Below, piece by piece: positions 36,892 to 59,026 of a stretch of DNA of 64,000 bases. Under the pieces are notes generated by a model. The model made no database searches. It was given only the letters and a program-made list of their open reading frames with translations, and was not told the DNA's origin. Source of the DNA: Rhizodiscina lignyota (taxonomy: Eukaryota); NCBI GenBank assembly GCA_010015805.1, contig ML978131.1, forward strand, positions 434,001-498,000. The letters run 5' to 3'. The first letter of the stretch is position 1. Each line of letters opens with the position of its first letter. Position numbers and translations under genes: made by a program.

Positions 36892-38879
36892 CAGAAACGG
36901 TGAAATTCATAGGGTTGACACAACTAAACAAGAGAACACGACGACGAGAGCATATGGCCCTTTTGATCAGGCTGCCCCACATTTCGCGCTGCGTGTTATT
37001 GTGATAGCACATCGAGTTCATTGCAGTACGCCACATGCACCTTTGCTTTGTCAGATCAGGCTGGCCCCAATTTCGCGCTGCGTGTTCTTGTGGTGCCACG
37101 TCGAGCTCATTTCATGAAGACTTCACAGTCTTGATTGCGCATCTACCTCGATCTTTGTCCAGTCATCTTCGCCGATCTATCAGACCCGGCCCTGACACAA
37201 GGTGGTTCTGGCTAACGGCAGCCTTCCTTTGATCAAGGATAGAACGACGTACCATACGGTTTGGTGAAGCTACTGCTACTGCCAAGGGTTGTTTGTCCAG
37301 TGCTGTTTGCTCGCGTAAATGCGTCTATGTTTGATAGTGGTTTGGTGAATTTATAGTCAATAGATACTTTCTTGGTAGCTTGAAATGTAGTTAAGGGTTA
37401 ATATTCAGAACTCACTACATTCTGCTCCAATAATGCTAATGAACCTTTGGTCAGTATGAAGCTCACGCATAGACATCGTAAAGACTGAAAAGAGAGACTG
37501 CTACTAGCTAGAATTGAGTGAAGGGAAGGTATATTGCCGGGACTACGGTCCAAAACTAAGCCACTAAATGCTCTGTGGTCCGAAAATGGGACCGGTCAGG
37601 CTCAGAACTTCCGCACCCCTGCCGCGGAGGTGCTTAGGCCCAATTTCAAGCCCTCTTCACGCTGCTCAGGGGTAAAATCAGGCGCTAGCTCATGGCGAGC
37701 TCAGTAGCTACTGCTCAGAGTAACTCACGTCTCAGACAGAAATGGACTTTGTGTGAGGTCACTTTGTCGTATGTCTCTCGCTATACATTACCTAATTTCT
37801 GAAGACGAAAATCGAGGCACAGGGGTAGAGCCGCTAGTTGAGTTATGGTGCGCTACGAACTACGGTGGACTGCAACTGAACATTGCGCTCTTCCCCTCCC
37901 TGCTTTTCGCCTTTTCATGAAGTGTCCCAAAGCTTCGTCTTAACGCCGAATAAGATTCAATGCTGCTTGCGATTGACAGGCACGCCTATTCCTGCTGTCG
38001 GTAAAGCCTTAATCTCACCAAAGGCTCCCAATTAATGCCGTTTTGCAACCTTTCGGGCAATTATCCAATGTACCAGACCACGCGTCGGCCATCGCGCTCC
38101 GCGTTTCAAAAGGACCGGAGCTTCTCGCATCCTCACCACACGCTCTCGTTTCATTCACCCTTGGTCAAGGAGATACTGTCGCAGCACGAACCGCACCAGT
38201 GCATAAAAAGTAAATCGATCGAGCTCGCTTTCCAAAAGCTTGTCTTTCCCCACAAATTGGTTGGACGGCTTCTGAGCGATTGTTTCCGAGGTGCTGAAGG
38301 TGCCCGTTTCAGCACAGTGTTGCTGAAGGCAATCGCACCGGAGATCGCTTAAACTGATACATTGGCAGCTTCTGGCTGGATAGATGGCGCTTGAGTACCT
38401 GTGAAAGCCAATTATCTTACCATTGCAAAGGGAACAGCGCGTGCCGGGTGAGTGTCAAGGCTCAATTAGGTACCTGTTTGATCGCTTTCTCTTCCTGTCC
38501 TCTTCCTCCGCACTCGTCTGCTATTGCCATATTGCTCTCGTCTGGACTCATACCCAGGTAGACAAAACATTTTGAGACTGCCGCATGTAGCCCCTTACTT
38601 GCTCACTGCCCCCCTTCATTCTCTTATATGCTCATTGTCTTTCGGCCGCGAGCTATCTCTTAGTCTTCATCTTGGCTTACGAATGCGCTTGCGTGGTAGA
38701 CCCACGACTGCTTGTGTCCTGCCCATCTCTTTTCTTGGAGCGTTGAGCAAGTTTGCGTTCAATCTTAGATCCTCTGCGTGAGCTGGTTTAGACAAGTCTT
38801 TCAACTTGCTACACTCTTCTTGTCTCCGTTATCCTCCCTCTCCTACACTTACCTGCCGGGGTACGGCACAGCTTTGATA

Positions 38880-40976
38880 ATGCCGTATGGCGCTGCACCC
38901 TCCAAAAAGAACAAGAGTCGTCAGGCCGAGCCACTATTATCCGACTACTTACAATCAGATTCTTCTCTTGAGGCAGGTGATCAAGAGCAGACACCCGCGA
39001 CATCACGTCTGCTGTCAAAGCACGATGTACATCTCAAATCCATCACCGCTGCCTCATCATCATCTGCTTCCTCGATAACACTAGTGGAGAAACTCGACGC
39101 CATATCTCTACGCTCACCATTCCCAACTGCGTTCCGCTCACCTTTCGAGGCTCCGCTCACATCACCATTCCCGAAACCGGAGTATCATAAACATAGCCCA
39201 TACGCCACCGATGGGCAACATCCTGCAGAACTCAACACCATCCCGGAGGCATCTCCACTGGGCCGCAACCTAAAGTGGTCATCTGCCTACCTCCTCATTA
39301 TCTCTCGAGTCATTGGGAGTGGTATCTTCGCCACTCCTGGTGTCATTGTCCATAGTGTTGGTAGTGTCGGTCTATCATTATTACTATGGTTGCTCGGTGC
39401 TGTCGTTGCAGCATGTGGCCTGGCAGTTTCTCTCGAACTCGGGTGCATGCTTCCTCGATCTGGCGGCGAGAAAGTATACCTTGAATTTATCTACAACCAT
39501 CCGCGATTCCTAGCAAGCACTGCCGTAGCAGTGCAAGCAGTGTTGCTCGGCTTCACAGCCAGCAATTGCATCGTCTTCGGCAAATACCTTCTCTTCGCCT
39601 TCGACATCGAGCCCACGGAATTTGCACAGCGAGCATGTGCTTTGGGCCTCTTAGCTGTCGTGACAGTGCTGCATGGCTGTTTCCTCCGGACTGGTATCGC
39701 CATCCAAAATGCACTCGGCTGGATCAAACTTGTTGTTGTTGCTTTCATGGCAATAGCAGGCATTAGCGTGCTTATTTTCCGCCCTACCGCCACGGCACAT
39801 CATCACCATCACCACCACGCACACATAACTCATCATGATCTTATGATGACGCCTTCCCCTTTCACTTCGTGGGCGGCACTGTGGGCTGGGTCCAATTGGT
39901 CTTTTGGCACGCTCGCAACATCCTTCTTCAAGATATCCTTCGCTTACTCTGGATACGACAACGTCAACAACGTCTTGGACGAGGTCAAAGACCCCGTGAG
40001 GACCCTGAAGACAGCTGCGCCAGCTGCGCTAATCACGATTTTCATATTTTATTTCCTGCTTAATGTTGCATATTTCGTCGTTGTCCCGGTCGAGGACATC
40101 AAAAAGAGCGGCGAGCTCATTGCCGCATTGTTTTTCGAAAGAGTATTCGGCGAGGGCGCAGGAGGCAGAGTGCTTCCGATCTTGATTGCATTAAGCGCAG
40201 CTGGCGCGGTGATGGTCAGCACGTTCACGCAGGTAATATTGCCTTGTATCACAAAGACTCTTGAGCGCTGTTGTTAACCTAGTCGAACAGGCCCGCGTAA
40301 ATCAACAAATCGCCCGACAAGGCTTCCTTCCATTCTCCCGCTTCCTCTCATCCTCCAAGCCCTTCAACGCCCCTCTCGGCGGCCTTCTCGTCCACTTCAT
40401 CCCCTCAATGCTCGTCATCACTCTCCCGCCGCAAGGAGAAGTGTACTCCTTTATTCTCGAGACGAAAGGCTACCCCGCGCAGTTCACTTCGCTCGCTATC
40501 TGCGCCGGCCTGCTCTGGCTACGGTCGAAAAGACCTGACCTGCAGAGGCCGTTTAAGGCATGGCGGGGCGCCGTGTGGTTGATCATTTGCTTGAGCGTGG
40601 CGCTGATGGCGGCGCCTTTCTTCCCGCCGCAGAAGGGCAAGGAGGAGTTCAGCTTCTGGTATGGGACTTATGCAGTCGTGGGCATTGGGATGTAAGTTTC
40701 TTCTGCTGCATGATTTGCGCGGGGAACAGTGAGCGGGCAAGTTGCTAACGCTGTTTCTTTAGTATGCTCTTCGCCGTACTGTATTGGTACATCTGGATCG
40801 TTCTGGTGCCGAAGCTGTCGGGCTACAAGGTAGAGGAGGAAATGGATGTCTTGGATGATGGGACATCGATCACGAGCTTGGTGAAGGTGAGGGATAAAGA
40901 GGCTGAAGAGCAAACTCCGCTCTGGGAGCGGCTTGGGTTCTTGAATCCTAGAAACTGGTTTCCTGGGCGCTCGTGA
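38880..40976 (+). CDS. APC-superfamily amino-acid permease, Mup1/LAT (methionine permease-like)
   Basis: IGSGIFATPG, LELGCMLPRSGGEKVYL, FAYSGYDN..EVKDP, LRSKRPDLQRPFKAW. Introns 40233-40290 and 40692-40762. Confidence 0.88.
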
Positions 40977-41245: not shown

Positions 41246-42350
41246 TCAAGCATTGACAGGAACATTGGGTGCTGATCCCTTGCTCGTCTCATCCTCGTTT
41301 TGGATGATGGCTTTCACTGTCGCTTCAGCACTCTCCCACCACCCCTTCCACTGTGTTCCAAACACCTTGTCTGCCTTCGCGGTGTCGAACTTTGACAAAG
41401 CAGCCTTGATATTCGGGTTCCGCTCGCCTACCGGGACACGGTCACGCAGCCAAGGGAATACCTCTCGAATGCGGTTCGCAACCGCTGCGGTATCCATGAA
41501 GTCTTTAGCAGCAAAAAGATATCGCTCGTTCCCGGGGATTTGGGGCGACAATGAGCGTATATGAACTCTAGCGACGTCATCTACGTCTCTGTAGAATCTA
41601 TTAGCTCACAGTCGCATTTAAATCAGCATTTGTGCTTGCTTACAAGTAGTAAGGGAAGATGAAGCCGAGTGTGTCCCGATCGAATATCTCCCTGTACATC
41701 ATAGAAATGCCCCCAAGACCCGCCTTGTTGGGTTTGAACCCATGTTGAAGAGTGCGGCCTGTGATTGATGGCACAAGCAAGAACAACAACTCGAACGGGG
41801 GCTTGTTGCTCTCCACCCATTCCCATGCTTTCTTCTCAGAGTGGACTTTGGAGTACTGGTATGCGTTTGGCAGGTTCTGAAGTGCTTCTTCATGCGTAAC
41901 GGGGTTGTAGTCCTTCTCAGTGAACGTCTCTCCGCTCATCAGCTGGTCTGGTAATTTCATCACGGTGACCGCGCTGCCGGTAATGACCACGCGCTTGACA
42001 GATCCAGACGTTGCTGCTGCTTTGAGTACGTTCTCGTTGATGGCTACGGTGCCTTTGATCATCGTGTTTTCGAAGTCTGAGTCGCTAATCGGAGTAGCAG
42101 CGTGAATGATGCCTGAAGCGCCTTTTGCGGGCTCGTCAAAGACACCGGGAACTGCCATGTCAGGGATTTCCGTGAAACGGAGCTTGTCGTTGGAGATGTA
42201 GGAGGCATATTGTTTGGAGAGCGCATCTTTGGATTTCGCAAAGGAGCGAAGGATTGCGTTGACTGTGTATCCGTCCCGGAGCAAATGTTCAAGAATAACG
42301 GAGCCGGTGCCGCCAGTCGCGCCCGTAAAGAGCACGTGAGATCCAGACAT
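41246..42350 (-). CDS. Extended SDR, Gre2/aldehyde reductase II-like NAD(P)-dependent reductase
   Basis: VLFTGATGGTG, IIHAATP, VKRVVITGS, YQYSK catalytic motif; LDVDDVA after intron 41589-41643. Confidence 0.88.
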
Positions 42351-43639
42351 GATCGTTTACAAGAAGACTGGTAACAATATTGTAGAAGGAAGGTTGACCT
42401 TGTGACGGTCAAGCTGTTTATATGCATTTCGTCGACGACGTGGATAGCGTAGCCTGGCGAACCATGACCGGTCCGGACGAAAAAAAGCGAATATTGCCAT
42501 GTGGGTTCCTCGAAGTTTTGACGCGTCTCGTTGTAGGCCTAACTTTTCAAAGTGTTTGAGTATCGAAAACTGGCTGAAAGTGGTCATAGAGACGATTATA
42601 TTTGTCGTGTTGACTGAGGGTGACTGAGGCAGGAACCGGTTTGTCAAAGGGGCGTATTATTAATTGACAAGCACACCACCGCGCGCGGGACAAGCCACGG
42701 GCTATCGCAGCCAAAGAAGAGCTTGATAGTGGAAGAAATGAGGGGAAGACGGAGTTGATTACTATCGATGACTTCAATCTTGAAATTGAATTGGCTGCTA
42801 TGGATTCGCGTATGCAGAAGAGATTCTAAGGTTCCTTGGCTGTCTCGCGCGTCAGCCCACGGCAAGAGAAAGTTGCTATGTGAGTTGTGGAGAATATTCG
42901 GTATTAACAACGACCCCTTAGCCATTGGAAAGAAGTGAGAAAGAATGAAAGCATATTCCTTGTGCATCAATCAATACGGGCGTCTCAAACTGCTCATTGT
43001 ATCCGGCTACACGGCGATGCTTGTCGCCGAGCTAGATCGAATCCTCCTCAGAAGCGCACGACCTGGAATTAATCTGTCAAAAGCTTTGCGAGCATCTTGA
43101 AACTCTTGAGAAGGTCTTTTTGGAGGGACGTCGATATCCTGTCACATCTTTTTATCCCAATGATCTAATCGCTTGTGACAAGTGATGTTTGAGTGGCTTT
43201 CCTTTCTGCTTCAGGTACTCTAGAGAGACGGGCCAGTTATGGGAGATGGGAAAGGGGCTACATGATAGCTTATGGGGATCATATATGGAAAGACCATGTT
43301 TGAGACTACATGTTGTAGATAGATATCCCAGTAATATCGTTGGGAGTTGTGTAACTTCGAGGAAAAGGTTCTTGTGCAGAACCTTTACCGTAGATGTCCA
43401 ATCTCAGTTGTAGCTCACCGAAAACGCGCAAACGCGAACGCGCTCTAGCGACAACTCCCCACTCACTGTCCACATTAACCATCGCATTCCTACACGGACC
43501 ACTACTACTATAACTCTGACCAGGCCACCCTCATAAAGCGTGCGATTTCCACAACACGCTCTGCGTAACTTGCGTCGGTCTTGTCAAGCTCAAAAACACG
43601 TTTGGCGCCTCTTGAAGGTAGCCCGAAGCAGACGCGACC

Positions 43640-47636: not shown

Positions 47637-48741
47637 TATATCTCTTTCGGTATACGCCACATTTCCTCTTCTGGCGTTCTTTCTTCTTCTCACTTGGTAA
47701 AGGGGACTACCCTTTGATGAGGAGAGCGTGGAGTTATGAGACGTCAAGTGTGAACGATTCCTCTTTCTATGAGCTTTACGATGACTAAGGCTACGTGATC
47801 TTAAGTTCTTAATTCTATTCAATGCAAGAGGACTTATACAGGATCCCTTCGAATTGACTGACTTTATTCTCCGCTCTTGCTCCCACTTAGCTGCAGCGGT
47901 TTCTGGTGCCTCGACGTGCGGTCTTGTGCATATTCGACCCCTCTATGCACATCTTGCTTCCAGTGCTCACGGATGCGTTCAACTGTCAGTCGGCTCGCTT
48001 TGCTGTGCTCCGCATTCCCCATGGCACTGTGTCATGGCGAGACCATACTTCCTGTTATAATGGTTTGCTTGAAGGAGAGAGGTAATGGAACCTGAAATTA
48101 GGTAGCTATGACTTGACACATGCCATAAGGATGACATTGATTCCAATGAATGTGCTGAGGAGCCAAGGAACGTCTTTGTCCGAATACATCTGCGAATTTT
48201 GACTTCGTTACATAAACGCCTCACTCCTCCTGTCGGTGAATTGATTATCGATTGAGCAGTCGCCGTTTTACATGTATGTGGTTCTGGATTAGTAAAAGAA
48301 TGCAATGTTAGACCAATGGAGACCAGGGTATCGCTTTCTTCATCAATTCTGCTGTCACCGGGTCGGTATATTATTCGTGGGCGAGTGAACGAAAGGTTTC
48401 AGCATTCAGCGCTAGGACCAAAGAGGAAATCGCCGATTCAAACTCCTTCATGTCCAAAGCTGCCGGCAGGATGCAAGCGACCAAGTCTCACCCGAATTCT
48501 CCGTAACGACCGTGAACAGAACTAAAATGGAGAAAGAGTGGCGAGGCCCTTCCTGCAATGCCATTGTTGTGGGGACTGATATCGTACTCCGTTGCCTCTT
48601 GGGGCGATTTCCCCGGACTGAGCAACGCGTGCAGTAGCTCGTATTCAAATCTCGCGCTCCTTCAGTCCAATATCGATATTGTCTTCTGCGTCTCTCGTTC
48701 AATTTCTGTCCATGTCAAGGCCTTCCCTATCGTGAGTCAAG

Positions 48742-50608
48742 ATGGTTGTACTACACAAAGGCGACAGATTGCAGTTCATACCTCGCCATGTTGGACCAAA
48801 TGTCCTGCCCCAGTAAGAAAGTCCAGGAAGCCTATGCCTAGACAGTGCACTTACGGATATGCTTCAGATTCTTGCTCTTCGAAAGAATGGTGAGATGGGC
48901 AGCTCTCCAGCCACATCTTATAGCAGTAAAGGACTTGACCTTTGGTCACACTGCGAGTTACGCTCAGCTCCTCACCGATATCCTCGCAATGAAGAATGCT
49001 CTTCGTTCGAAATTGAGTCCCGATTTGATCAAAAAGCTTGACAACGACGAAGAAGTTTTCATCAATCTTCTCGCAACTCCAGGCTACGAGTTTACGGTGG
49101 GTTTCTTGGGCATAGTTGCTCTTGGGGCAGCTGTATCGCCGTTGTGTACGTTTGATTCAGATTTATCACATGCGCTTATCGGATCTTTGCTGACTACTTT
49201 CCAGCACCAGAATGGCCAGCTAAAGAGGCAGCTACATTGGTGAATCGTGCAAGTGCATCGGCTCTATTATCGACGCATAATTGCTTGCCAAAAGCAAAAG
49301 AAGTTGCTCAAATGGTATCCTCAACCACGAACCCTAGTTATTACTGCGTGGAGGTAAAGCCGTATATCATGAATCCTCCTTTACCTACCGATCAAATACA
49401 CATCAGCTCCGGTCTTTCACTTGATCTTGACGGATCTGGCCTCATCATTTTCACCTCCGGCACAACTGGACCACCCAAAGGCGCTGTTCGACGCCGGTCA
49501 TTCTTCATCGACCACTGCATGCACGTTGCGGATACTTTTGGCCTCACCACTGGCGAAACTGTGCTGCATCAGCTTCCAGTGCACCATATCACCGGCGTTG
49601 GTTTCACTCTCTGTCCTTTCCTGCTCTCCGGCGGCTGTATCGAGTTCAAGACTGGCGGGTTTGACACTGTTTTCACCTGGGAGCGGATTTCCAAGGGCGG
49701 GCTTACATATTTCTCTGGCGTACCCACGATCTACATGCGTCTAATGCAATATTACGAGCAAAACCTGGCAACCCTACCCCCTGAGAAACTTAAGCCGTAT
49801 CTCGACGGTATCTCCGGATTCAAGCATCTGATGTGCGGGACAAGCGCATTGCCGCGGCCTCTGCAAGAGAAGTGGACCAAGTTAAGAGGCGGAAGGAGGA
49901 TCATGACTCGTTACGGTGGTACAGAGTTTGGTAGTGGATTCGTTGTACCCCCCGGAGCTGATGATTGCCCGCCAACGTCGGTTGGTATTGTCACTCCTGG
50001 TGTCGACCTGAAACTGTCTGAAGGCGACGAGGGTGAGATTCTGATGAGGAGTCCCACAATGTTTGCACGCTATGTAAACGATCCTGCGGCGACAGCTGCG
50101 GCGCACACACCGGACGGATATTACAAAACTGGAGATATTGGACGAAGAGAAGGCAAATACTACTACATTCTCGGCCGTGCTTCCGTTGACAGTAAGTGGT
50201 TCCATCTGATTGAAAATGCCGCGATGCTTATTCATGACAGTCATGAAGTCTGGAGGCTACAAGATATCAGCGCTCGATGTTGAGCGAGAGATACTTGGAT
50301 TGCCTTACATTTCGGAGGTCATGGTCTGTGGTGTGGAAGATGAAGAATTTGGCGAACGAGTTGCTGCTGCGATTGTGCTGAAAGGGAGGGAGGACTTGCC
50401 CATCGACGACCTGAGAAAAGACCTTCGGAGCTCGCTACCAGGTTACCAGATGCCAACACTTCTCAGAATTGTGAAAGATATACCAAAGAACGCCACAGGA
50501 AAGGTTATGAAGAAGCAATTGCGGCCACAAGTGTTTCCACCCGGGGGCCATCCAGACATACAACGCTGGGTCAGGCCAGCGAAGAGAGCCCCGGAATCGC
50601 GAATTTAA
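48742..50608 (+). CDS. Acyl-CoA ligase, malonyl-CoA synthetase/ACSF3-like, probable peroxisomal (-SRI)
   Basis: FTSGTTGPPKG, LPVHH, RYGGTE, YKTGD, GRASVDIMKSGGYKISALDVERE, PKNATGK. Introns 48813-48867, 49146-49204, 50192-50240. Confidence 0.88.
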
Positions 50609-50782: not shown

Positions 50783-51591
50783 CTACAACTTCAGCTTTGG
50801 CCTCCTGTTCGTCGGTCTGCTGTGTACATAGCTCAACTTTTGAAACTTCTCTGCGGCGTCTCCGAGCAGCTCGTTGCGCAGGACGCCATACACACCCATC
50901 TTCGACTTGCTCTTCCACTTCTCTGCGTATTGCAAAGCGACATCGAACATCTGCTCTGGTTCTGCGATCGCATCTACAACGCCGTCTTGGAAAGCTTCCT
51001 TGCCCGTAAATTTGTGCGCCTCCAACAGCACTTTCCTCGCAACCTGCGGCGCCAGCTTCGCTCGTAACAACGAGCCCATACCATCAAAGTGCAGACCCAG
51101 ATTTGCCGGGGGCATCGAAAAGAAACCTCGGCGAGAGTTCATAATTCGGTAATCGTGAGACATTGCAAGAAGGCAAGCGCCTCCAAAAACGTGGCCGGTG
51201 ATGAGCGCAATTGTTGGATACGGGAAGTCCACAATTGTGTGGAGGAGGGGATAGAAGCCATCGGAGCTGGTGAACGCAGAGCTGTCGCGCTCGTCAAGAT
51301 CAAGTCCCTGACTTAACCATTACTTTTTATTTTTTTATTTGTGAGTCGAACATCTTCTCTTACAGTTGTGAAATATTTGTAATCGTTTCCCTTCAGAATC
51401 ACGGCGCCATCAGAATCGGGCCCACCCTCCTTGTTACCTCCCAATTCGTTTTGAATGTCGTGGTAGACCTTTATCATCTTTTGGCAGTATTTTACATTGA
51501 GCCGGTTTTCTGGTCCGCGTTTCATAGTAATGACGAAGATGTTTCCCGGTCGTCGCTCGACCAAAAGGTCGTCTCCGTACGAAGCCTCCAT
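50783..51591 (-). CDS. Crotonase-fold (enoyl-CoA hydratase/isomerase family) protein, PTS1-like end (-PKLKL)
   Basis: ENRLN, FTTGLDL (across intron 51308-51363), PTIALITGHVFGGACLLAMSHDYRIM, EAFQDGVVD. Confidence 0.88.
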
Positions 51592-51856
51592 CTTGCTGTT
51601 GTTGATGGTGGAGCTGCCAACCTGACTGACGTGAAAAGAAGCTACATAGAATTCCTCGGCACAGCACGCAAGTCTATCAATTGCTGGTCTTACTGCGCGG
51701 TCAAGGCCTTCCTCGCGTGACGTCCGGCTATCGCGTCGAGCTCCGTGTGGGGAAAGGTGGATAAGTGCCGAGAAATGTCGCAAATTTACCGTTTTGGGGA
51801 AAATCCGAACCCCAGATCTGCTTCGACCCTGCATCTTCTCCGATCCACTTTCCTGT

Positions 51857-51887
51857 AATCGCCGCAATGGGGAGTTGGCCGGCGATT
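51857..51887. promoter_or_regulatory. Inverted repeat AATCGCCG-N15-CGGCGATT in the divergent promoter; candidate Zn2Cys6 site
   Basis: Perfect 8-bp arms; the same half-site recurs at 48428-48435. Confidence 0.5.
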
Positions 51888-52024
51888 TTCGGCGACTGAG
51901 GCTCATCAGCTCATCCTCACGTCGTGGCCGGCTGAGCAGTTCATCATGAAGAGACAAATAGCTTTATATAGGGGCAGTATAGAGAGTCTCTGAATCGAGC
52001 GGACGGAAAGTCAAATGTGAGGCA

Positions 52025-54024
52025 ATGGAGAAGAGAAACATCAGCAACGAGGTGCATGAGACACCACTTTCGACTTTCCTTTGGGGTGGGAAGGACCGGA
52101 TACAGAGACGCAAGCAGGTTGTCAAAGCACTGACTTCGAACCCAATCTTTTCAAACTACCCGCCACCCGGATCGTTGGCTCGTAAAGAATCATGGACCAA
52201 GGCAGTGCATCAGGCGAAGGAACTCATCGCGATCAGCTTCAGGGAGAAATGGACTCATGAACAATTCCGAGATGCTGTTCGAATGTTTGATGGCATGTTG
52301 CCAGTCCAGCCACAATATCGCATTTTCCTTTCGAATCTAGAGAGACAAGCCTCAGATGAACAGAAGGCAGAGTGGGTCCCAAAGGCTGAGCATTTCGAAA
52401 TATTCGGCTCATACTCGCAAACCGAATTAGGCCATGGATCGAACGTGAAGGCTATCGAGACGACTGCTACATTTGACAAAGAGACGGACGAGTTTGTCAT
52501 CAATACTCCATCGGTCAGTGCCACTAAGTACTGGATTGGCACGACCGGCATCTGGGCAACTCATTCGCTCATTGTTGCAAAACTCATCATCGATGGGAAG
52601 AACTACGGCAATCATTTGTTCTTTACGCAGCTTCGTGACCTCAACACGCAGAAGCTTATGCCAGGCGTGGAAATTTACGAACTTGGTCCAAAGGCTTTCC
52701 AAAGCATGGTTGGTGTTGACAATGGTGCCATGCAGTTTCATAATGTCCGCGTTCCACGGTCACAAATGCTCTCTCGAAACGCCCAGGTCAAACGAGACGG
52801 TACTTACGTACCCCCAAAGAACGTGAAGCATTCTTACGGTTCCATGATCACGGTTCGGGCCATCATGGCTGAGATTACTGGATACGATCTGTTGAAGGCC
52901 GTCGCTGTAGCTTTTCACTACACGACATTCCGAAAGCAGTTCCAGCAGAAGGGTAAGAGCGAGGAAACCACTGTGTTTGACTATGCTAGCGTCAGATACC
53001 GCTTGCTGCCACTTCTAGCACAAGGAACCGCGCTTGTCATTGTGGGCCAGCATGTGAAAAGGAAGTTTGATCAGTACACCGAGGCCATGGTCAAGACCGG
53101 AGATATATCAGGCCTTGAGGACATCCATTTGCAGACTGTTGGTGCCAAAGTTTATGCAACGCATATCGCTGCGCATGGCATTGAAGTTTGCAGAGTAGCT
53201 TGCGGAGGTCACGGCTTCAACGCCTTGTCCGGATTTGGTCGAATGTACGCCAATTCAACGAAGGATCTCACTGTTGAAGGTGACAACTATGTCATCTCTC
53301 AACAAGTGCCGCGTGCGATTCTCAAACACTACGATGCAAAGTCGGAAAACTCTGTTCCTAGTCTCTCTTACCTTTCTCTTCTGAGGGAGGCTCAGCCGAA
53401 GCAGAAACTGTCGGTTCGCTCGAAATCTGACTGGTTCGCTTTAGAGAATCAGCAGTGGGTGATGGAGAGGCGACTAGCACATCTCGTAGAGCAACACATT
53501 CGTGCCACCAAGGCTGGAAAGGACACGAGCTTTTCGGTGCATGAGTTGACAATGGCACACAGCGATTACACTTACTGGAGAGGCCTCTGGGAAGTGATTC
53601 CCTCCGTCGACTCCTCCATTGCGGAGCCTTTGAAGGCCATTGGACAAGTGGTACGTCTTTCCATTCGAAACTATATACATGGATGCTGATATTTGTACAG
53701 TTCTCTTTGCATATTTTGCAGCATGCACATAAAGACTTGTTCGGCGAGTACGCCTTGTCTGCAGCTCAGCGTGACTCGCTCGCGGATGCGTATGACGACG
53801 CCGTCCAGGACCTGGCTAAGTATGCCAGAGACGTCATAGATGGATATGGCTTTACAGAATGGGAGATGGATAGTGCGTTAGCAAAGGCGAAGGACACGCC
53901 ATATGAAGCGTTGTTCAAGGGGGCTCAGGCGAGCGAAATGAATCATTTGCAGCATCTGTGGCCATTTATTATCTCGGTGAGGAACGTTTGGAAGGAGGTC
54001 CAAGCCGAGAAGGCCAGACTGTAG
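52025..54024 (+). CDS. Peroxisomal acyl-CoA oxidase (PTS1 -ARL)
   Basis: YSQTELGHGSNV..ETTATFD, KYWIG, GVDNG, CRVACGGHGF, TVEGDN (catalytic Glu); intron 53651-53700. Confidence 0.95.
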
Positions 54025-54255
54025 TCTGCAGATTGAACTCTATGTAAAATTTAATCAACCGATCTTCCAATCTGCTTCACTATCACACGATATCTTGCCA
54101 TCTTTGTGGGCTGTAAATTCTAACTTAAAGGGGTTAGCGTTGTTATTGCCTCGGTGGAAGCGTCCCGGTGGAGCAGCGTTATCTCACCGTTCACGCCGCA
54201 TCCGGCGGGAACAGCGATAACCAATACAGAAGGATGACTGAAAGAACAACGCCAG

Positions 54256-56926
54256 ATGGCGAATTTTTCTGGGTTTGCGACACCATACGTGGGAACCAAA
54301 TCGACAAGGAGAGCATGTGGGACCTGTCATAGCAGGAAGGGTGAGTTGACAAGTTCTTTGATATCACGTCGATCTCCTGTTTCGGTTTCGGGGCGATATG
54401 CACCTCTCGTATTGGATGGAAGAAACACAGCGTCTACAGGTGAGAAAGAGATGGATGCGGTTATTGTTCCACTGCATGAGGTCTAGAAGCTGTTAACGGC
54501 GGAGCGTCCATGATGTTCATCGGTGCCTATCGAGCGCCGCATGCCTGGCGACAGTCCCGGATGTTGCCATTTTGAAGTCGAATTGCGAGAAACAAGTCTA
54601 ACAATTGGTAGTGCGATGCGATGTTGCAACGACTGGAATTCCTTGCTCCAACTGTACAGCCTTAGAGAAGACTTGCGAGTAAGCCTTATCAGATACAGCC
54701 CAATGCTCAGTTGCGCATGTCACTTACGCACAATAGGATCCAGCCAAGGAAACGCCGGAAGTTACAACAGGTAAGAAACCTTTGGTCCAACGATCAGTCT
54801 CAAAGTTCAACATTGTCTCAATATATCCCGACTGCTCTGGAGTATTTCCGAAGGTGGAAGATCGATTGAAAGCCTTCAACCGCTCCAGATGAGCCGCGTC
54901 CTGAAAAAGCGGAAATAAGCGCATATGGGCTTGGCTAAGATATTTTCTAAACTATAGTCCGATACCAACGATAGCAACGACGCGAATGATGAGCGTACTA
55001 TTGACAATGGTCCTAGCGGGCCTGAGGAGAGTCCTCCCAGAACGCGACCTGAAGCTCAAGATCCTAATTCACGATATCCGACAACTCCAAATTCGGCTAC
55101 GAAACCACCGAGTGAGAACAACCCACCTCCCACTAATCGACCGCGAAGGGGATCATCTTTCCCTGTCCCGTTTGTTAATGCATCGGCAATTTCTCCCCAC
55201 TTGTACAGCGATTCATCCACCGTCGAGCACCATGCTCCTGTTGCAACCAATGGGGTAGAAGGGATGCCGTCGTTCATAAATCGGGGTGCTATTCTACCCG
55301 ATACCGTCCCTGGACTGGATACTTCCCCTGCGAACTCTGCCTCGAGCATGCCTGGGAACCAGATCTCCCAGACAGATTTACAAGTCTTGAAACTGCGCAG
55401 CGCCTTCGACCTACCCCCGCTTTCTCTGCGGCAGAGTCTGATAGATGCATTCTATGAGAAGTGCTGGACGTGGATGCCGGTTGTTGAGCCAGATTCATTC
55501 AGCCAGGGCGCTCCATCTTTCCTGCTACTGCAGGCAGCGTGCCTGGCGGGCTCACAGATGCGGCTTTCGGTGTCGAATTTTGCATCTTCAGCTGAGTACT
55601 TGGCTCGCGCAAAAGCACTTCTTGACGCCAATTTCGAGAGGGATCCATTAAAGGTGCTTGCTGCACTCTGTATGATTCAAATGTGGAATGGCACATCACC
55701 GAACATCGTCTCAACGACTACGTCTCGATTCTGGATTACGTATGCCATTAGTCTAGCTCAACAGCTAGGGCTCCATAGGATTTCCAAATCAGGCACGAAA
55801 GATTACGGACTTCGAAAGCGAATATGGTGGACAATATATGTAAGGCAACTGTAATATTTGGAAGATCCATGTCTAACTTTTTCGATAGGCACGCGACAAT
55901 TTTATTGCGTCTGCGCATGGACGGCCGCGATTGATCAATATCCAGGACTGTACTATCGACAGGCTGACCTTGGAGGACTTTCCGGACCCACAGGACCCAC
56001 GAAATGATATCTTCCGTTTTTATGTATCAATATGCGGCATTCTTGGTGACCTTTGCGAGATGCTCATGCGCCGCTCACATTTGAGCTCCCATGAAAGAAG
56101 CGCTATTGGCGCGGATCTACTGCGATGGCAGCGCGCCTTACCAGAGAGGTTACGGCTTTACGATGCCGAAGGAAAAGCTTTGCCATATAACTTTGAGGTT
56201 GCGCGCCTGCATATTGTCTATTTCACAACAGTCACAATTCTCTTCCGACCCCCTTCTGTCTATAGGCTATCGCCTAATAACACCGCTGCTGTCATTGCAT
56301 CTTCGATGAACTGCCACCTTGTGGAGGCCTTTCTTCTTCGGGACCAAGCACATTATTTGTCCGGTCAGGAAACGTGGCAATTACTTGTTGCGGCGATTCC
56401 GCAACTCTCCTCCTGGCCTGTTCCTAGTCTTTGGCAGGAAGCTCAGTCGGGCTTGGATGTCATTGAGGAGGTCCTTACAATAATGGGACGCAAGTTACCA
56501 TCGGCGGTAAACAATCTGCGCAACGTACGTTTGCTTCGATCTGCAATTGCGAACGGTACCATAGCGGCGTCAACGGCTCCAAGAGAACCCCCTGGAGAGG
56601 ACAACAGCTACGCATACTTCTGTCCCTGCGATTTGTTCGAGTCTTTCGGAACTGACGTTAGCAACAATTATCGGCAAGTCGAGAGGCTGCTCAGCGACCT
56701 GTTAGACCCCCAGACCGAGAGTATGATCGGAGCCAGTGAGGAAGCAGGACCTTACCTGGCAAATGGCGGCATTACACCAGTTCAACCTGAAGATCAATCG
56801 GGGATCGGCAGCGTGCCCGACATGTTGAACGGGGAGAGCAGTTTCTACGAGGGACTATCCGGCTTTGATATGTTCGATCAAAATAACTGGATGGTCAACT
56901 GGGTATTCGATCAGAACATGCCATGA
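54256..56926 (+). CDS. Zn(II)2Cys6 transcription factor with Fungal_trans domain (Ctf1/Far-like)
   Basis: Spliced binuclear cluster ACGTCHSRK|VRCDVATTGIPCSNCTALEKTC, NLS-like RKRRK, RKRIWWTIYARD..HGRPRLI. Introns 54341-54611, 54679-54736, 54771-54957, 55840-55888. Confidence 0.92.
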
Positions 56927-57062: not shown

Positions 57063-58781
57063 TCAGCCAAATCCAATCGCTTCAGCAAGGCTTTTTGGCA
57101 AAAGCCCTCGCTCCTCCATCTCGCTTGCCACATCGCGCACCCTTTCCAGCGCCAAAGACATCCGCTTCGCTCCATCTTGGATGAACGCAAGTACATTCGC
57201 AGACGTACCCAGGGCCTCTACGATGAGTCTCCTCACGTTAACCTCCTCTAAAAGTTCATTCGGATCTGTGCCATCTTCTCCAAGTTCGTGGCTTTGTGCC
57301 GCGCGCGACGCGCAGGCTCCAGCGAAGCTGTATGATTGGTCTGCGTCTGAAAGCGACTGTACGTCAGGAGCAGTAGTTTGCTGTGTCGTTGCCGCGACAA
57401 TTATATACATGCGAAGGCGAATATCCCCGTAAAGGAGCAGCAGTTGAGCTCGCTTTAGTTGCGGATAAGGTTCAGCGCCAACCATGGACTGAGATTGCGA
57501 CAAGACGGGAAGGAAATCATCGAGAGTTGCTTTCGCTTTCTCCAGAACGGAATAGAGCGTTTTTGCAGAAGAGAGATTGCTTAGTTCGTTCTGGTCTTTC
57601 ATTCCAGCGGCCGCAAGATCGTCAAGCGCATCTGCGTACGAGGAAGCAACAGACAGAAGGTACTTCGCGGCCACATTTGAGGATGCATCTCGGGCTATCT
57701 CGTCGCCAACGATCGTCTCGAATGCGTCTTTGAGTCGCACTGCGTAGGTCTCAAGATCTGCAAGACTGCTTCGATACTCCGCATCAGCTGCAACTGCTCG
57801 GAAATTCGCAACGGCGATGTTGGCTTCAGCTCTCGCTTCCGATTGAGGATTTCGGGGAACTTGGGTTTGTGTGGATGGGGTGAAAGTAGCGGTTGCATTG
57901 GAAGTGATACTGAGGACCGGAAGACTTGCAGTAGACTCAACGTCCTTTGTAGATGTTGTCGGTATTAATGAAATGTACGAAGAGATCTTTGTTTGGATGA
58001 GAGGGTTCGCAATCTCTGTTAATGAAGCGAGTGTGCTGCTTGGTACTGGGACTGACAATGATATCAACGTGCTCAAGCAGGACAGCTGCGCCAAGGCACT
58101 TTCAAGAAGAGTGTCTGCAGTTATAGGGTCTTCGATTAATGCCCATTGCTGTGCAGGTTCGCTTGTGGTTGAAGAAGTTTCTATCACTTCTTCAGTCTGG
58201 GTTTCCGCTGACGCGGCCATGTTGTCGAATTGAACTTGAGCTTCTGCAAGATCGGACTGGCGCTCGTAGAACTCCATTTCCTGCCTCGAGAGGCATGACG
58301 AGAAGAGCTCGACCGCCTCTTGAAGTAGTTGAATCGCATTCTCTTGTGATCCAGAGGCTCCTTCATCGTCCAGCTCCTCTGCAAGGCTCGTGAGGACTTG
58401 TGCAGTGTTGAACAAGACATCAGCGTTTTGCTCATTCAGGCGCAGCGCATAACGATGAGCCTGCACCGTCTCCTTCAATATCTCCAGGCGCGGGCCTAAG
58501 TGCGGTAATATTCGCGGGTCTTGATACAGCTCGTATTGCAGATGAGCTTTGTTGTAGGCCAGGTCAAAGGACTCTGGAAATTTCAGTAGTCCGGCATTGT
58601 ACGTCTCTATCGCGCGCACGAAAAACCTCGTGGCTTTAACAGCGTCGCCAGCTTTCCACTTGCCGCCTCCTCTTTCGTGTTCATCTGCGAGTTCGAGAAA
58701 GTCGTTTTCTGATTCGGGAAGGGCTTGTTTGCTGGAGCCGGCCTTCTTCTTTGGCTTTGGAGCTTGCTTTAATTTCGCCAT
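57063..58781 (-). CDS. Conserved fungal TPR-like helical protein (UPF0656-like)
   Basis: 572-aa single-exon ORF; GGKWKAGDAVKATRFF..SFDLAYNKAHLQY..NADVLFNTAQVL TPR-like pattern. Confidence 0.7.
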   Translation of the reverse strand: MAKLKQAPKPKKKAGSSKQALPESENDFLELADEHERGGGKWKAGDAVKATRFFVRAIETYNAGLLKFPESFDLAYNKAHLQYELYQDPRILPHLGPRLEILKETVQAHRYALRLNEQNADVLFNTAQVLTSLAEELDDEGASGSQENAIQLLQEAVELFSSCLSRQEMEFYERQSDLAEAQVQFDNMAASAETQTEEVIETSSTTSEPAQQWALIEDPITADTLLESALAQLSCLSTLISLSVPVPSSTLASLTEIANPLIQTKISSYISLIPTTSTKDVESTASLPVLSITSNATATFTPSTQTQVPRNPQSEARAEANIAVANFRAVAADAEYRSSLADLETYAVRLKDAFETIVGDEIARDASSNVAAKYLLSVASSYADALDDLAAAGMKDQNELSNLSSAKTLYSVLEKAKATLDDFLPVLSQSQSMVGAEPYPQLKRAQLLLLYGDIRLRMYIIVAATTQQTTAPDVQSLSDADQSYSFAGACASRAAQSHELGEDGTDPNELLEEVNVRRLIVEALGTSANVLAFIQDGAKRMSLALERVRDVASEMEERGLLPKSLAEAIGFG

Positions 58782-59026
58782 GGACGGTCTTCTGGAGATT
58801 GGATTTCACTGAGAAACGCTCTTTTACTGTGGCGAATGCAAGAACTTTGCGTTGATTAGTTGATTATAAAAGTTTAGGGTCAGGTCATGTCACACCCACC
58901 TAATGCAGATCCACGGTAGATTTTCGATACTGTAAATGAGCTAGGCCTAATTAGTGATAAAATATACTTTGCGCATCGCGAACTTCGACATGAAATGAAC
59001 AACTCCGTCTTCAAATTGCCTTCACA

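Follow-up and report, generated by a model that had tools for sequence, protein, structure and literature searches.

A crotonase of Rhizodiscina lignyota without the two canonical catalytic glutamates, its ligase-oxidase cassette and a possible role in decarboxylation

In a 64,000-nucleotide stretch of contig ML978131.1 of Rhizodiscina lignyota, hereafter the window, we found a two-exon crotonase gene with an acyl-CoA ligase gene on one side and an acyl-CoA oxidase gene on the other, and a gene for a transcription factor beyond the oxidase. The features, in window positions, are these:

48558-50608, plus strand: gene for an AMP-binding acyl-CoA ligase made up of several exons, its 5' end placed approximately, converging on the crotonase gene, product ending -SRI
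50785-50783, minus strand: stop codon (TAG) of the crotonase gene
51307-50786 (to 50783 with the stop), minus strand: crotonase coding exon 2, residues 77-250 (174 amino acids)
51363-51308, minus strand: crotonase intron, 56 nt, GTAAGA...TCAG (GT..AG), from reading the sequence
51591-51364, minus strand: crotonase coding exon 1, residues 1-76, ATG at 51591, ending ...KYFTT, from the translation and from reading the sequence
51592-52024, no strand: divergent intergenic region between crotonase and oxidase, 433 bp, with one CCTCGG at 51654-51659, from ORF coordinates and a motif scan
52025-54024, plus strand: gene for an acyl-CoA oxidase, at least two exons, intron near 53.55-53.69 kb (approximate), product ending -ARL
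54238-56926, plus strand: gene for a fungal-specific transcription factor of the Zn-cluster type, made up of several exons, its 5' end placed approximately, from Fungal_trans and the ORF list

The two coding exons of the crotonase gene encode 76 + 174 = 250 amino acids, and the spliced product is the database protein 'enoyl-CoA hydratase [Rhizodiscina lignyota]' (P0003), with 100% identity over exon 2. The stops met when 50783-51591 is translated unspliced are due to the intron, which splits the first oxyanion-hole motif (FTT|GLDL). This motif and the others quoted in an earlier note on this DNA (GHVFGGACL, FFSMPPANLGLHFDG and LGLHFDG) were all recovered; exon 2 carries GHVFGGACL, SHDYRIMN, SMPPANLGLHFDG, SYVHSR and the C-terminal KLKL. 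Pfam ECH_1 scored 72.4 bits on exon 2 alone (cut-off 27; 4.8e-20), and an AF2 model of the protein (pLDDT 92.8) matched dozens of crotonases at Z 24-28, which places it in the crotonase superfamily. We found 610 homologues at E<=1e-5, and the crotonase, the ligase and the oxidase each lacked an NCBIfam family above cut-off.

HMMER alignment with human and rat enoyl-CoA hydratase puts Leu122 at the position of the first catalytic glutamate (GGGCE versus GGACL) and Pro143 at that of the second (QPE versus MPP). Among the 96 full-length relatives that make up the clade, position 122 is Pro in 54, Leu in 38 and Val in 4, position 143 is Pro in every member as part of an invariant Pro142-Pro143 pair, and no member has an acidic residue at either site, as a two-glutamate hydratase would. 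The [N/P]-Glu pair of single-glutamate isomerases is likewise replaced, with Pro143 in all 96 where relatives have Glu. The oxyanion-hole segments F-T-T-G77 and G-H-V-F-G-G119 align with their counterparts in hydratase and methylmalonyl-CoA decarboxylase, and G77 and G119 are invariant in the clade. Leu122, Pro143 and these segment alignments bear out what the earlier note had put at its centre, the absence of both canonical glutamates with retention of the oxyanion hole. The residue that it had suggested for checking, Asp151 of LGLHFDG, fared less well: it is present in the window protein, and position 151 is acidic in 63 of the 96 members (D in 52, E in 11), but the remaining 33 have Pro (26), His (5), Asn (1) or Gln (1), and cassettes whose crotonase has Pro here (L039, L023 and L060/61) keep ligase and oxidase. 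Because the position is conserved neither in the family nor in related cassettes, Asp151 is an unlikely catalytic base, and it was rejected as an Eci1-like one.

The clade spans Pezizomycotina, with identities of 53-71% between members from different fungal classes. For the tree, 110 rows (100 full-length representatives and 10 family members) were reduced to 105 by dropping five bad gene models, and a quick IQ-TREE run was made with SH-aLRT support only and a midpoint root for drawing. Position 143 is Glu in 81 of these rows, belongs to a Pro-Pro pair in 14 and is something else in 10. In this midpoint-rooted quick tree the Pro-Pro group forms one branch (SH-aLRT 99; 98 together with its sister) nested among the Glu rows. 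Furthermore, a Glu-bearing Pezizomycotina clade has [N/P]E in all 117 of its newly listed members, which end in AKL, SKL or PKL, one of them in AKI, and at least six species possess both the Pro-Pro and the Glu-bearing form. Since the Pro-Pro clade nests within a large Asn/Pro-Glu, PTS1-bearing family, the loss of the glutamate appears to be derived. The fold of the model agrees with this lineage: its best match is the human mitochondrial isomerase 1sg4 (Z 28.3, rmsd 2.2, 234 residues aligned), with M. tuberculosis Rv0632c/EchA3 (4fn7, Z 28.1) and the rat mitochondrial isomerase 1xx4 (Z 27.5) close by, and the isomerase matches (Z 27.5-28.3 over 223-235 residues) extend over nearly the whole chain, C-terminal helices included. 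Alignment, tree and model strongly support the view that the crotonase is a neofunctionalised paralogue of a PTS1-bearing, single-glutamate, enoyl-CoA-isomerase-like eukaryotic family. The earlier note had overlooked this descent from Glu-bearing, PTS1-carrying isomerase-like enzymes.

Equally strong is the support for what changed within the clade, where the catalytic Asn/Pro-Glu became Pro-Pro and the first oxyanion Asn a Thr, Glu82, an acyl-loop motif, a Ser-Tyr-Val-His238 motif and His149 were gained, and one residue of the loop before helix H4 was lost. Glu82 is present in 96 of 96 members, His149 and Ser235 in 95 each and His238 in 91, and none of the four occurs in the Glu-bearing relatives; together with Thr76, which occupies the first oxyanion position where these relatives have Asn76, and with the C-terminal Ser-Tyr-Val-His238 motif as a whole, they make up a conserved clade-specific set. 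His149 sits in the very loop that bore the lost glutamate, the loop preceding helix H4, which is one residue shorter in the clade. The acyl-loop motif (residues 84-96) is also conserved and particular to the clade, and the oxyanion loop has been remodelled from FAGG in the relatives to FGGA. The invariance of Pro-Pro and the remodelling of this loop suggest a changed chemistry. On the other hand, His115 and His127-Asp128-Tyr129-Arg130 are not new catalytic residues, because they are common to the clade and its Glu-bearing isomerase-like relatives. Conserved acidic residues, Glu82, Asp/Glu84 and Asp92, would be odd near a carboxylate substrate, and this speaks against a decarboxylase.

The oxidase has the Pfam domains ACOX_C_alpha1, Acyl-CoA_ox_N and ACOX, and nothing in the PDB matches it better than human and rat ACOX1 (about 1e-84). 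The ligase has AMP-binding and AMP-binding_C, and the label 'malonyl-CoA-synthetase-like' given to it earlier holds in part: the best PDB match of one of its exons is indeed the Streptomyces malonyl-CoA ligase MatB (3nyq, 1.1e-30), but the NCBIfam malonyl-CoA synthase model NF005702 ranks third, after generic acyl-CoA synthetase models, with 97 bits for the window exon and 188-190 bits for cassette ligases of full length where the cut-off is 558, short of what a MatB/ACSF3 assignment takes. That the ligase might be a malonyl-CoA synthetase, or use dicarboxylates, is a weak reading.

We compared 18 dereplicated related loci whose flanks measure 15 kb or more. The crotonase is accompanied by the ligase in 12, by the oxidase in 12, by both in 10 and by the regulator in 6, and 16 of the loci have one or more of these partners. 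The functional linkage to ligase and oxidase that had been proposed from the window is borne out by this recurrence in independent fungal contigs. Homologues of the regulator adjoin the crotonase in other fungi, and one such locus (L002) has Zn_clus as well as Fungal_trans. Moreover, MFS transporters with a TRI12 efflux-type signature recur in five of 13 loci, and two crotonase subtypes pair with two oxidase subtypes. The 128 ORFs that surround the crotonase in 13 loci include no recurrent thiolase, dehydrogenase or hydratase, and the cassette is without a thioesterase. It is strongly supported by gene order that the crotonase works in a compact cassette with the ligase, the oxidase and the Zn-cluster regulator, often joined by an MFS transporter. 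The 580-aa ORF at 57063-58805 was rejected as a further member, as it had no match in any related locus; the CCTCGG hexamer, a FarA/FarB-type element, was dropped as evidence, as the window shows no enrichment of it (19 copies, with 29.8 expected). A search by locus tags of the literature covered found no paper on the pathway, and one for a ligase/oxidase/hydratase cluster found general papers only. The cassette is likely to represent an undescribed short acid-degrading pathway. As to whether the type II oxidase is the orthologue of A. nidulans aoxB, AN6765 did not appear among the names, generic or missing, of at least 120 listed matches.

The C-termini of the three enzymes are -LKL (crotonase), -SRI (ligase) and -ARL (oxidase). 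Peroxisomal targeting signals of type 1 (PTS1) follow a consensus of the kind [SAC]-[KRH]-[LMI], by which the -LKL of the window crotonase is non-canonical; among the 96 family members the endings include VKL (34), AKI (31) and VKI (17). The crotonase is probably peroxisomal. According to PMC13343957, -AKI functions as a PTS1 in Histoplasma.

Our best guess, which we put forward tentatively, is that the enzyme decarboxylates a carboxy-acyl-CoA through an enolate held in the oxyanion hole. The ligase would activate a carboxylic acid, for which dicarboxylic acids are the most plausible candidates, and the crotonase, equipped with only its oxyanion hole and a histidine as proton donor, would decarboxylate the carboxy-acyl-CoA via an enolate or dienolate. 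In the order that we prefer, the oxidase would act first and give a glutaconyl-type 2-enoyl-CoA, on which the crotonase would then carry out a vinylogous decarboxylation like that of the ECH2 enzymes CurF and PksI; in the alternative order, that of the earlier note, an alkylmalonyl-CoA would be decarboxylated first and the oxidase would come afterwards. The product would pass into general beta-oxidation. Several lines argue for decarboxylation: the two glutamates have gone but the oxyanion hole remains, Pro142-Pro143 is invariant, the loss is derived, paralogues with the canonical Glu persist, new polar residues are conserved, decarboxylases are among the sequence neighbours, PksI and CurF offer a precedent, the cassette recurs, the three products have putative peroxisomal signals and the third known acid/base position is unconserved. 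Against it, the closest folds are isomerases and the lineage is isomerase-like, Tyr140 and His66 of the known decarboxylase are not kept, and the best match of the ligase, on which its dicarboxylate reading depends, is a weak one. A fuller version, in which the whole cassette would be a peroxisomal, oxidase-dependent dicarboxylic acid route, with dicarboxylate-CoA ligase and oxidase making a glutaconyl-type enoyl-CoA from which the crotonase removes the distal carboxyl via a dienolate, His149 and/or His238 being the only catalytic side chains, we consider unlikely. If true, the crotonase would be the first glutaconyl-type CoA decarboxylase with this fold in primary catabolism, and would offer filamentous fungi an alternative to glutaryl-CoA dehydrogenase.

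Nearly as likely as decarboxylation, though doubtful in its own right, is that the protein is still a delta3,delta2-enoyl-CoA (or dienoyl-CoA) isomerase, in which the lost glutamate is replaced by His149, perhaps with Glu82, or by Asp151 where this is present, and which shifts double bonds in the product or substrate of the oxidase. The nesting of the clade within isomerase-like enzymes speaks for this, as do the best folds (human and rat mitochondrial isomerase and Rv0632c), the nearest named protein-atlas cluster besides its own, that of a plant delta3-delta2-enoyl-CoA isomerase, the name delta3-delta2-enoyl-CoA isomerase given to some clade members by JGI, and the origin of His149 in the loop of the lost glutamate. 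Yeast Eci1 takes its glutamate from that loop and not from the hydratase positions. However, Glu-bearing paralogues in the same genomes already provide for the usual isomerase reaction, a cassette of ligase and oxidase has no obvious need of an isomerase, Asp151 is substituted in 33 of 96 members, and neither the invariant Pro-Pro nor the change from FAGG to FGGA would be expected of an enzyme that kept its old reaction.

The lack of a thioesterase and a hydratase in the cassette, and the TRI12-type MFS transporters that adjoin in 5 of 13 loci, could be accommodated by some other oxyanion-hole reaction on the oxidase product with the help of His or Glu, be it thioester hydrolysis with release of a 2-enoic acid, hydration, or a retro-Claisen or lyase cleavage. 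Crotonase-fold hydrolases and C-C hydrolases use sets of His, Asp and Glu, and the conserved His115, His127, His149, His238, Glu82 and Tyr129 recall such sets; but His115 and His127-Asp128-Tyr129-Arg130 are shared with Glu-bearing relatives and no hydrolase or lyase ranks high in PDB searches, and we find a reaction of this sort quite improbable. It is also conceivable, with still lower probability, that the protein does not catalyse at all and, like M. tuberculosis EchA6, whose structures are among the fold matches (Z ~24.7), binds acyl-CoA as a subunit or chaperone that passes substrates to the oxidase. The absence of a conserved acidic residue at the three known acid/base positions would fit, but hardly the strong, clade-specific conservation of active-site loops (Pro-Pro, His149, Glu82 and the 84-96 motif), the retention of both oxyanion-hole segments, or 53-71% identity across fungal classes. 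Finally, the NCBI name 'enoyl-CoA hydratase' and the generic hydratases at the top of the PDB profile search (5z7r, 6.1e-21) might suggest a standard hydratase of beta-oxidation, but this is scarcely credible for a clade in which both catalytic glutamates are missing from 96 of 96 members.

The reaction of a crotonase-fold enzyme is usually read off its acid/base residues. Here is a well-conserved fungal clade that conserves an acidic residue at none of the three known acid/base positions, is nevertheless kept under selection, presumably peroxisome-bound, and co-inherited with ligase, oxidase and regulator. Automatic annotation files what would be a compact peroxisomal pathway under 'enoyl-CoA hydratase', 'carnitinyl-CoA dehydratase' or 'isomerase', and the clade offers a clean natural experiment in the rebuilding of an isomerase active site. 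Among model fungi, A. nidulans provides AN6767 as a candidate and perhaps also aoxB (AN6765), its unexplained second oxidase. By way of context, members of the clade are found in black yeasts and in human-pathogenic Onygenales too, fungi for which peroxisomal metabolism is important during growth in a host.

Compared with known systems, the mitochondrial delta3,delta2-enoyl-CoA isomerase and Rv0632c are about 20% identical to the window protein, and the catalytic glutamate of the former lies at the second hydratase position, which is Pro143 here. Yeast Eci1 and human ECI2 (PECI) are peroxisomal and are not known to carry either hydratase glutamate, both of which the window protein lacks too, and the Eci1 glutamate would come from the loop before helix H4, where the window protein has Asp151. 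Enzymes of this type were absent from the best 60 PDB sequence matches and from the best 50 VIA rows listed, and a 39-residue piece of P0003 searched against PDB at E<=10 for an Eci1 alignment gave no match; in Foldseek, ECI2 ranks 17-47 with TM of about 0.68-0.70.

The likeness to a decarboxylase suggested earlier stands as far as sequence searches go. E. coli methylmalonyl-CoA decarboxylase (YgfG/ScpB; 1ef8, 6n92) is the best single-sequence PDB match (phmmer, 2.4e-12), with FSM.P.NLG aligned, Z 26.1, 26% identity and the second hydratase glutamate missing from both proteins, and its NCBIfam model PRK11423 is the best one, although sub-threshold (66.9 bits against a cut-off of 257). It does not extend to the active site or the fold: Tyr140 and His66 of the decarboxylase correspond to Phe150 and Leu78 here, its first-position Glu to Leu122, and the fold is nearer the isomerase (Z 28.3 versus 26.1). 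Unlike the window protein, this decarboxylase is bacterial and has no oxidase partner.

The ECH2 enzymes CurF (2q2x, 2.2e-8) and PksI (4q1g, about 1e-12 with the family profile) share with the window protein an isomerase-like character, the GH.FGG motif and hydratase positions devoid of Glu. With NCBIfam NF005496 the score is 48.9 bits, below the cut-off of 215. As stated in PMC7501309, the decarboxylation of 3-methylglutaconyl thioesters by PksI and CurF depends on the oxyanion hole and one catalytic His, which is universally conserved on the C-terminal (last) helix, and ECH2 of this type also take a CoA thioester in vitro. The clade has a C-terminal His238 in 91 of 96 members; by eye, and with a PksI C-terminus worked out from published primer sequences, the PksI His falls nearer residue 226. 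ECH2 decarboxylases differ in being bacterial and in acting on carrier-protein-bound 3-methylglutaconyl groups.

A peroxisomal isomerase of Penicillium, PbECI1007, has proven 3-to-2 activity (PMC12591190); it could belong to the Pro-Pro clade, which would be a point against a decarboxylase. Also close are monofunctional peroxisomal proteins from plants, fungi and protists that resemble delta3,delta2-enoyl-CoA isomerase, about 27-35% identical, whose names in databases ('Enoyl-CoA delta isomerase 1/3', 'dodecenoyl-CoA isomerase') come from automatic annotation. They have in common with the clade NGH.F.GG, H-D-Y-R, K72-F73 and a C-terminal PTS1-type tripeptide, but they carry [N/P]-Glu at 142-143 and Asn76 where the clade carries Pro-Pro and Thr76, with Glu82 and His149 in addition, and the clade alone has the loop shortened by one residue and an extra Ser-Tyr-Val-His motif ahead of its PTS1-like ending.

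The crotonase studied here lies on the minus strand at 51591-50783, in DNA that is fungal, and forms a cassette with a ligase, an oxidase and a regulator:

51591-51364, minus strand: crotonase exon 1 (translation, sequence read)
51363-51308, minus strand: crotonase intron, 56 nt, GT..AG (sequence read)
51307-50786, minus strand: crotonase exon 2 (translation), stop at 50785-50783
about 48.56-50.61 kb: AMP-binding ligase, tail-to-tail with the crotonase
52025-54024: acyl-CoA oxidase, head-to-head with the crotonase
about 54.2-56.9 kb: fungal Zn-cluster-type regulator, beyond the oxidase

Splicing gives a product of 250 aa, and exon 2 is 100% identical to the database protein P0003 (250 aa, 'enoyl-CoA hydratase [Rhizodiscina lignyota]'), for which the printed sequence consists of exon 1 and then exon 2. 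The motifs quoted in the earlier note were all found in it, with FTTGLDL split by the intron, and it scores 72.4 bits against Pfam ECH_1 (cut-off 27). In HMMER alignments with human and rat mitochondrial enoyl-CoA hydratase, the two catalytic Glu residues are matched by Leu122 (first) and Pro143 (second), and both oxyanion-hole segments align with those of hydratase and of E. coli methylmalonyl-CoA decarboxylase. Across 96 full-length members of the Pro-Pro clade of Pezizomycotina (alignment A1, 53-71% identity to the window crotonase), position 143 is Pro in every one, position 122 is Pro in 54, Leu in 38 and Val in 4, and Gly77 and Gly119 are invariant. The alignments and the fixed Pro143 confirm the earlier claim of canonical Glu loss with the oxyanion hole kept, and the counts at 122 and 143 make the absence of Glu a property of the whole family and not of a single gene.

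The loop equivalent to LGLHFDG, where the earlier note had pointed to His and Asp, contains a functional acidic residue in yeast Eci1 and in dienoyl-CoA isomerase. Position 151 in this loop is variable in A1 (D 52, P 26, E 11, H 5, N 1 and Q 1, thus D/E in only 63/96), and in 80 related metagenome loci it alternates between D, E, P, Q and S inside both crotonase subtypes; since the loci with Pro-151 (L023, L039/40, L060/61) still carry ligase and oxidase, Asp151 is unlikely to be essential. His149, in contrast, is conserved in 95 of the 96 members.

The AF2 model of the crotonase (pLDDT 92.8, pTM 0.92) matched in VIA-align human mitochondrial enoyl-CoA isomerase 1sg4 (Z 28.3, rmsd 2.2, 234 aligned), M. 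tuberculosis Rv0632c (Z 28.1), rat isomerase 1xx4 (Z 27.5), MenB (Z 26.4), methylmalonyl-CoA decarboxylase 1ef8 (Z 26.1, 26% identity) and CarB (Z 26.1), where rows no more than 1 Z unit apart are ties and a fold match gives no function. Classical hydratases were poorer in Foldseek (TM 0.66-0.69, rmsd 5-6), a result that fits a predicted C-terminal arrangement unlike theirs.

When the family profile was run against 1.84 billion representatives, 26,309 matched at E<=1e-3, and among them the clade, present as one full-length representative plus fragments, was followed by a broad set of 215-335-aa relatives (1e-48 to 1e-31). Their automatic names include 'dodecenoyl-CoA isomerase' (Actinomortierella) and 'Enoyl-CoA delta isomerase 3' (Hondaea), and the nearest named protein-atlas neighbour is a plant delta3-delta2-enoyl-CoA isomerase cluster. 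The relatives have NGH.F.GG and His127-Asp-Tyr-Arg130, both as in the clade, and a canonical PTS1 (AKL, SKL or PKL), whereas at 142-143 they read [Asn/Pro]-Glu, the Glu aligning with the second hydratase Glu in HMMER, and the clade reads Pro-Pro. For a tree we combined 100 full-length representatives (of 150 listed) with 10 clade members and left out five mis-modelled rows (P0128, P0132, P0135, P0138, P0139); the remaining 105 rows have Glu at 143 in 81 cases, Pro-Pro at 142-143 in 14 and other residues in 10. In this quick IQ-TREE reconstruction, with SH-aLRT support and midpoint rooting only, the Pro-Pro rows form a single branch (SH-aLRT 99), sister to a protein of Lophiostoma that reads Asp-Ala (SH-aLRT 98), and the two together are nested among the Glu rows. 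Glu-bearing paralogues in Pezizomycotina were sought with a profile of their clade, which matched 862 proteins at E<=1e-20; among the best 120 listed, all 117 newly listed proteins have [N/P]-Glu and end in AKL (89), SKL (23), PKL (4) or AKI (1). At least six species have both forms among the matches listed (Cyphellophora europaea, Cladophialophora carrionii, C. psammophila, C. immunda, Exophiala viscosa, E. xenobiotica). Because the branch is nested and Glu-bearing paralogues occur in the same species, the Glu-less clade is best read as an extra, derived paralogue in organisms with another isomerase-like copy.

Five further proteins (P0160, P0217, P0253, P0261, P0267) form a second Glu-less group in this radiation, on their own branch (SH-aLRT 98) and with Pro-Val, Pro-Ala or Pro-Leu at 142-143, so that the catalytic Glu may have been lost more than once. 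In Cyphellophora europaea the Glu-less P0027 (HMPREF1541_05200) and the Glu-bearing P0585 (HMPREF1541_05192) are eight locus tags apart, on a contig recorded with one and the same length, and may be near neighbours. The 90%-identity crotonase clusters also include two long gene models, P0323 (706 aa, 'MFS profile domain-containing protein', Penicillium solitum) and P0366 (789 aa, a hypothetical protein of P. chermesinum), which are probably annotation fusions; that of P0323 is consistent with a transporter gene adjoining the crotonase.

Residues were taken as clade-specific where the clade conserves them at 90% or more and no more than 15% of the Glu-bearing relatives have them. They are Thr76 (relatives Asn 94%), Glu82, Gly93, Thr100 (relatives Arg 77%), Asp103, Gly118 and Ala120 (FGGA against FAGG in relatives), Pro143, His149 (relatives mostly Pro), Gly154, Ser235 and His238. 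Residues 84-96 form a motif specific to the clade, the loop that leads into helix H4 has one residue fewer than in relatives, and the Ser-Tyr-Val-His-x-Arg tail, a gap in 93% of relatives, is modelled by AF2 at pLDDT about 93. Since clade and relatives have His115 and the HDYR motif in common, neither arose as a new catalytic feature of the clade. This conservation pattern indicates an active site that is rebuilt, not decaying.

The metagenome scan gave 80 related loci, or 63 groups once near-identical ones were merged, and partners were counted in the 18 groups that have 15 kb of flank or more. Homologues of the window ligase and of the oxidase each occur in 12/18, both together in 10/18, and the regulator in 6/18; at least one of the three is present in 16 groups and none in two. 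The cassette genes are not in a constant order or orientation, and the loci differ in the genes around them. By Pfam, 128 ORFs at 13 loci contained no other recurring enzyme (thiolase, dehydrogenase, hydratase), and an MFS transporter is found at 5/13. Type I crotonases (GHVFGG, including the window's) are accompanied in 6/7 loci by oxidases that share 60-70% identity with the window's, and type II (GHTFGGACP) by oxidases that share 33-43%; this pairing of subtypes points to a cassette that duplicated and diverged as one unit. The A. nidulans member is AN6767, orthologue of AFUA_2G14850, and, judging by gene numbers, AN6765 may be part of the cassette there; PMC4117967 describes this gene, aoxB, as a second peroxisomal acyl-CoA oxidase not induced by suberin.

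Several other features of these loci were noted. A 580-aa ORF just past the regulator (57063-58805, minus strand) has no Pfam match and was rejected as a cassette member, having no tblastn match beside any of the 80 loci. The divergent crotonase/oxidase promoter holds a single CCTCGG (51654-51659, plus strand), the core motif of binding sites for the fatty-acid regulators FarA/FarB, which shows no enrichment in the window (19 copies, 29.8 expected). An aromatic amino-acid (phenylalanine-type) ammonia-lyase gene (18085-20088, minus) and a multi-exon cytochrome P450 (11823-14266, plus) lie 30-40 kb upstream, with housekeeping eIF3a and SMC genes between and no link to the cassette seen. Upstream of the SMC gene, a two-exon amino-acid permease (38769-40695, plus) and an NmrA/epimerase-like gene (41640-42356, minus) do not recur beside the crotonase in other loci. 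At two metagenome loci, L015 (12301-14050) and L075 (12129-13835), a gene 2 kb downstream from the crotonase encodes a fusion of a TrAA12-like domain with a cytochrome domain of cellobiose-dehydrogenase type; the regulator is adjacent at both, and no oxidase was found inside their flanks.

The best PDB match of the ligase is a Streptomyces malonyl-CoA ligase (1.1e-30, one exon), of MatB type, and in NCBIfam generic acyl-CoA synthetase models score above the malonyl-CoA synthase model, none near cut-off, so 'malonyl-CoA-synthetase-like' serves as a lead but does not place the ligase in that family. The earlier observation is thus confirmed and its interpretation partly supported: the kept oxyanion hole and the ligase/oxidase linkage hold, the malonyl-CoA-synthetase reading is weak, and Asp151 is unlikely to be a base. 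The crotonase is a variant within its superfamily, from an isomerase-derived Glu-less clade in a conserved uncharacterised cassette; in the literature searched, no publications on either clade or cassette were found.

The protein keeps an intact CoA-ester fold with its oxyanion hole, none of the known crotonase acid/base positions keeps a conserved acidic residue in the clade, conserved His and Glu residues are gained, and the clade is co-inherited with a ligase and an oxidase, the C-termini being of peroxisome type (ligase -SRI, oxidase -ARL, crotonase -LKL). Base-free enolate chemistry is best fitted by a decarboxylase, which we put forward tentatively and by analogy: the crotonase would stabilise an enolate or dienolate that needs no general base for its formation, CO2 loss giving the (di)enolate and a histidine donating the proton. 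Ligase, oxidase and a vinylogous decarboxylase could in this order convert an acid of glutarate type to an ordinary enoyl-CoA, which would account for a cassette that needs no further beta-oxidation enzymes; in the alternative order of the earlier note, alkylmalonyl-CoA would be decarboxylated first and oxidised afterwards. Nearly equal in standing, and likewise doubtful, is an isomerase with its base relocated to His149 or Glu82, which lineage and fold favour, but for which the oxidase is an odd partner and the retained Glu-bearing paralogues are a difficulty. Hydrolase, hydratase or lyase chemistry seems unlikely, and a non-catalytic binder more so.

An experimentally proven peroxisomal isomerase of Penicillium, PbECI1007, is described in PMC12591190 and could be a member of the clade. 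For decarboxylation, PMC7501309 describes PksI and CurF ECH2 as isomerase-like crotonases without glutamates that decarboxylate 3-methylglutaconyl thioesters with one catalytic His and also accept the CoA ester in vitro. In a by-eye reading of the C-terminus from printed primers, the PksI His falls nearer residue 226 than His238, and residue 226 is acidic in 80/96 clade members as well as in 52/81 Glu-bearing relatives.
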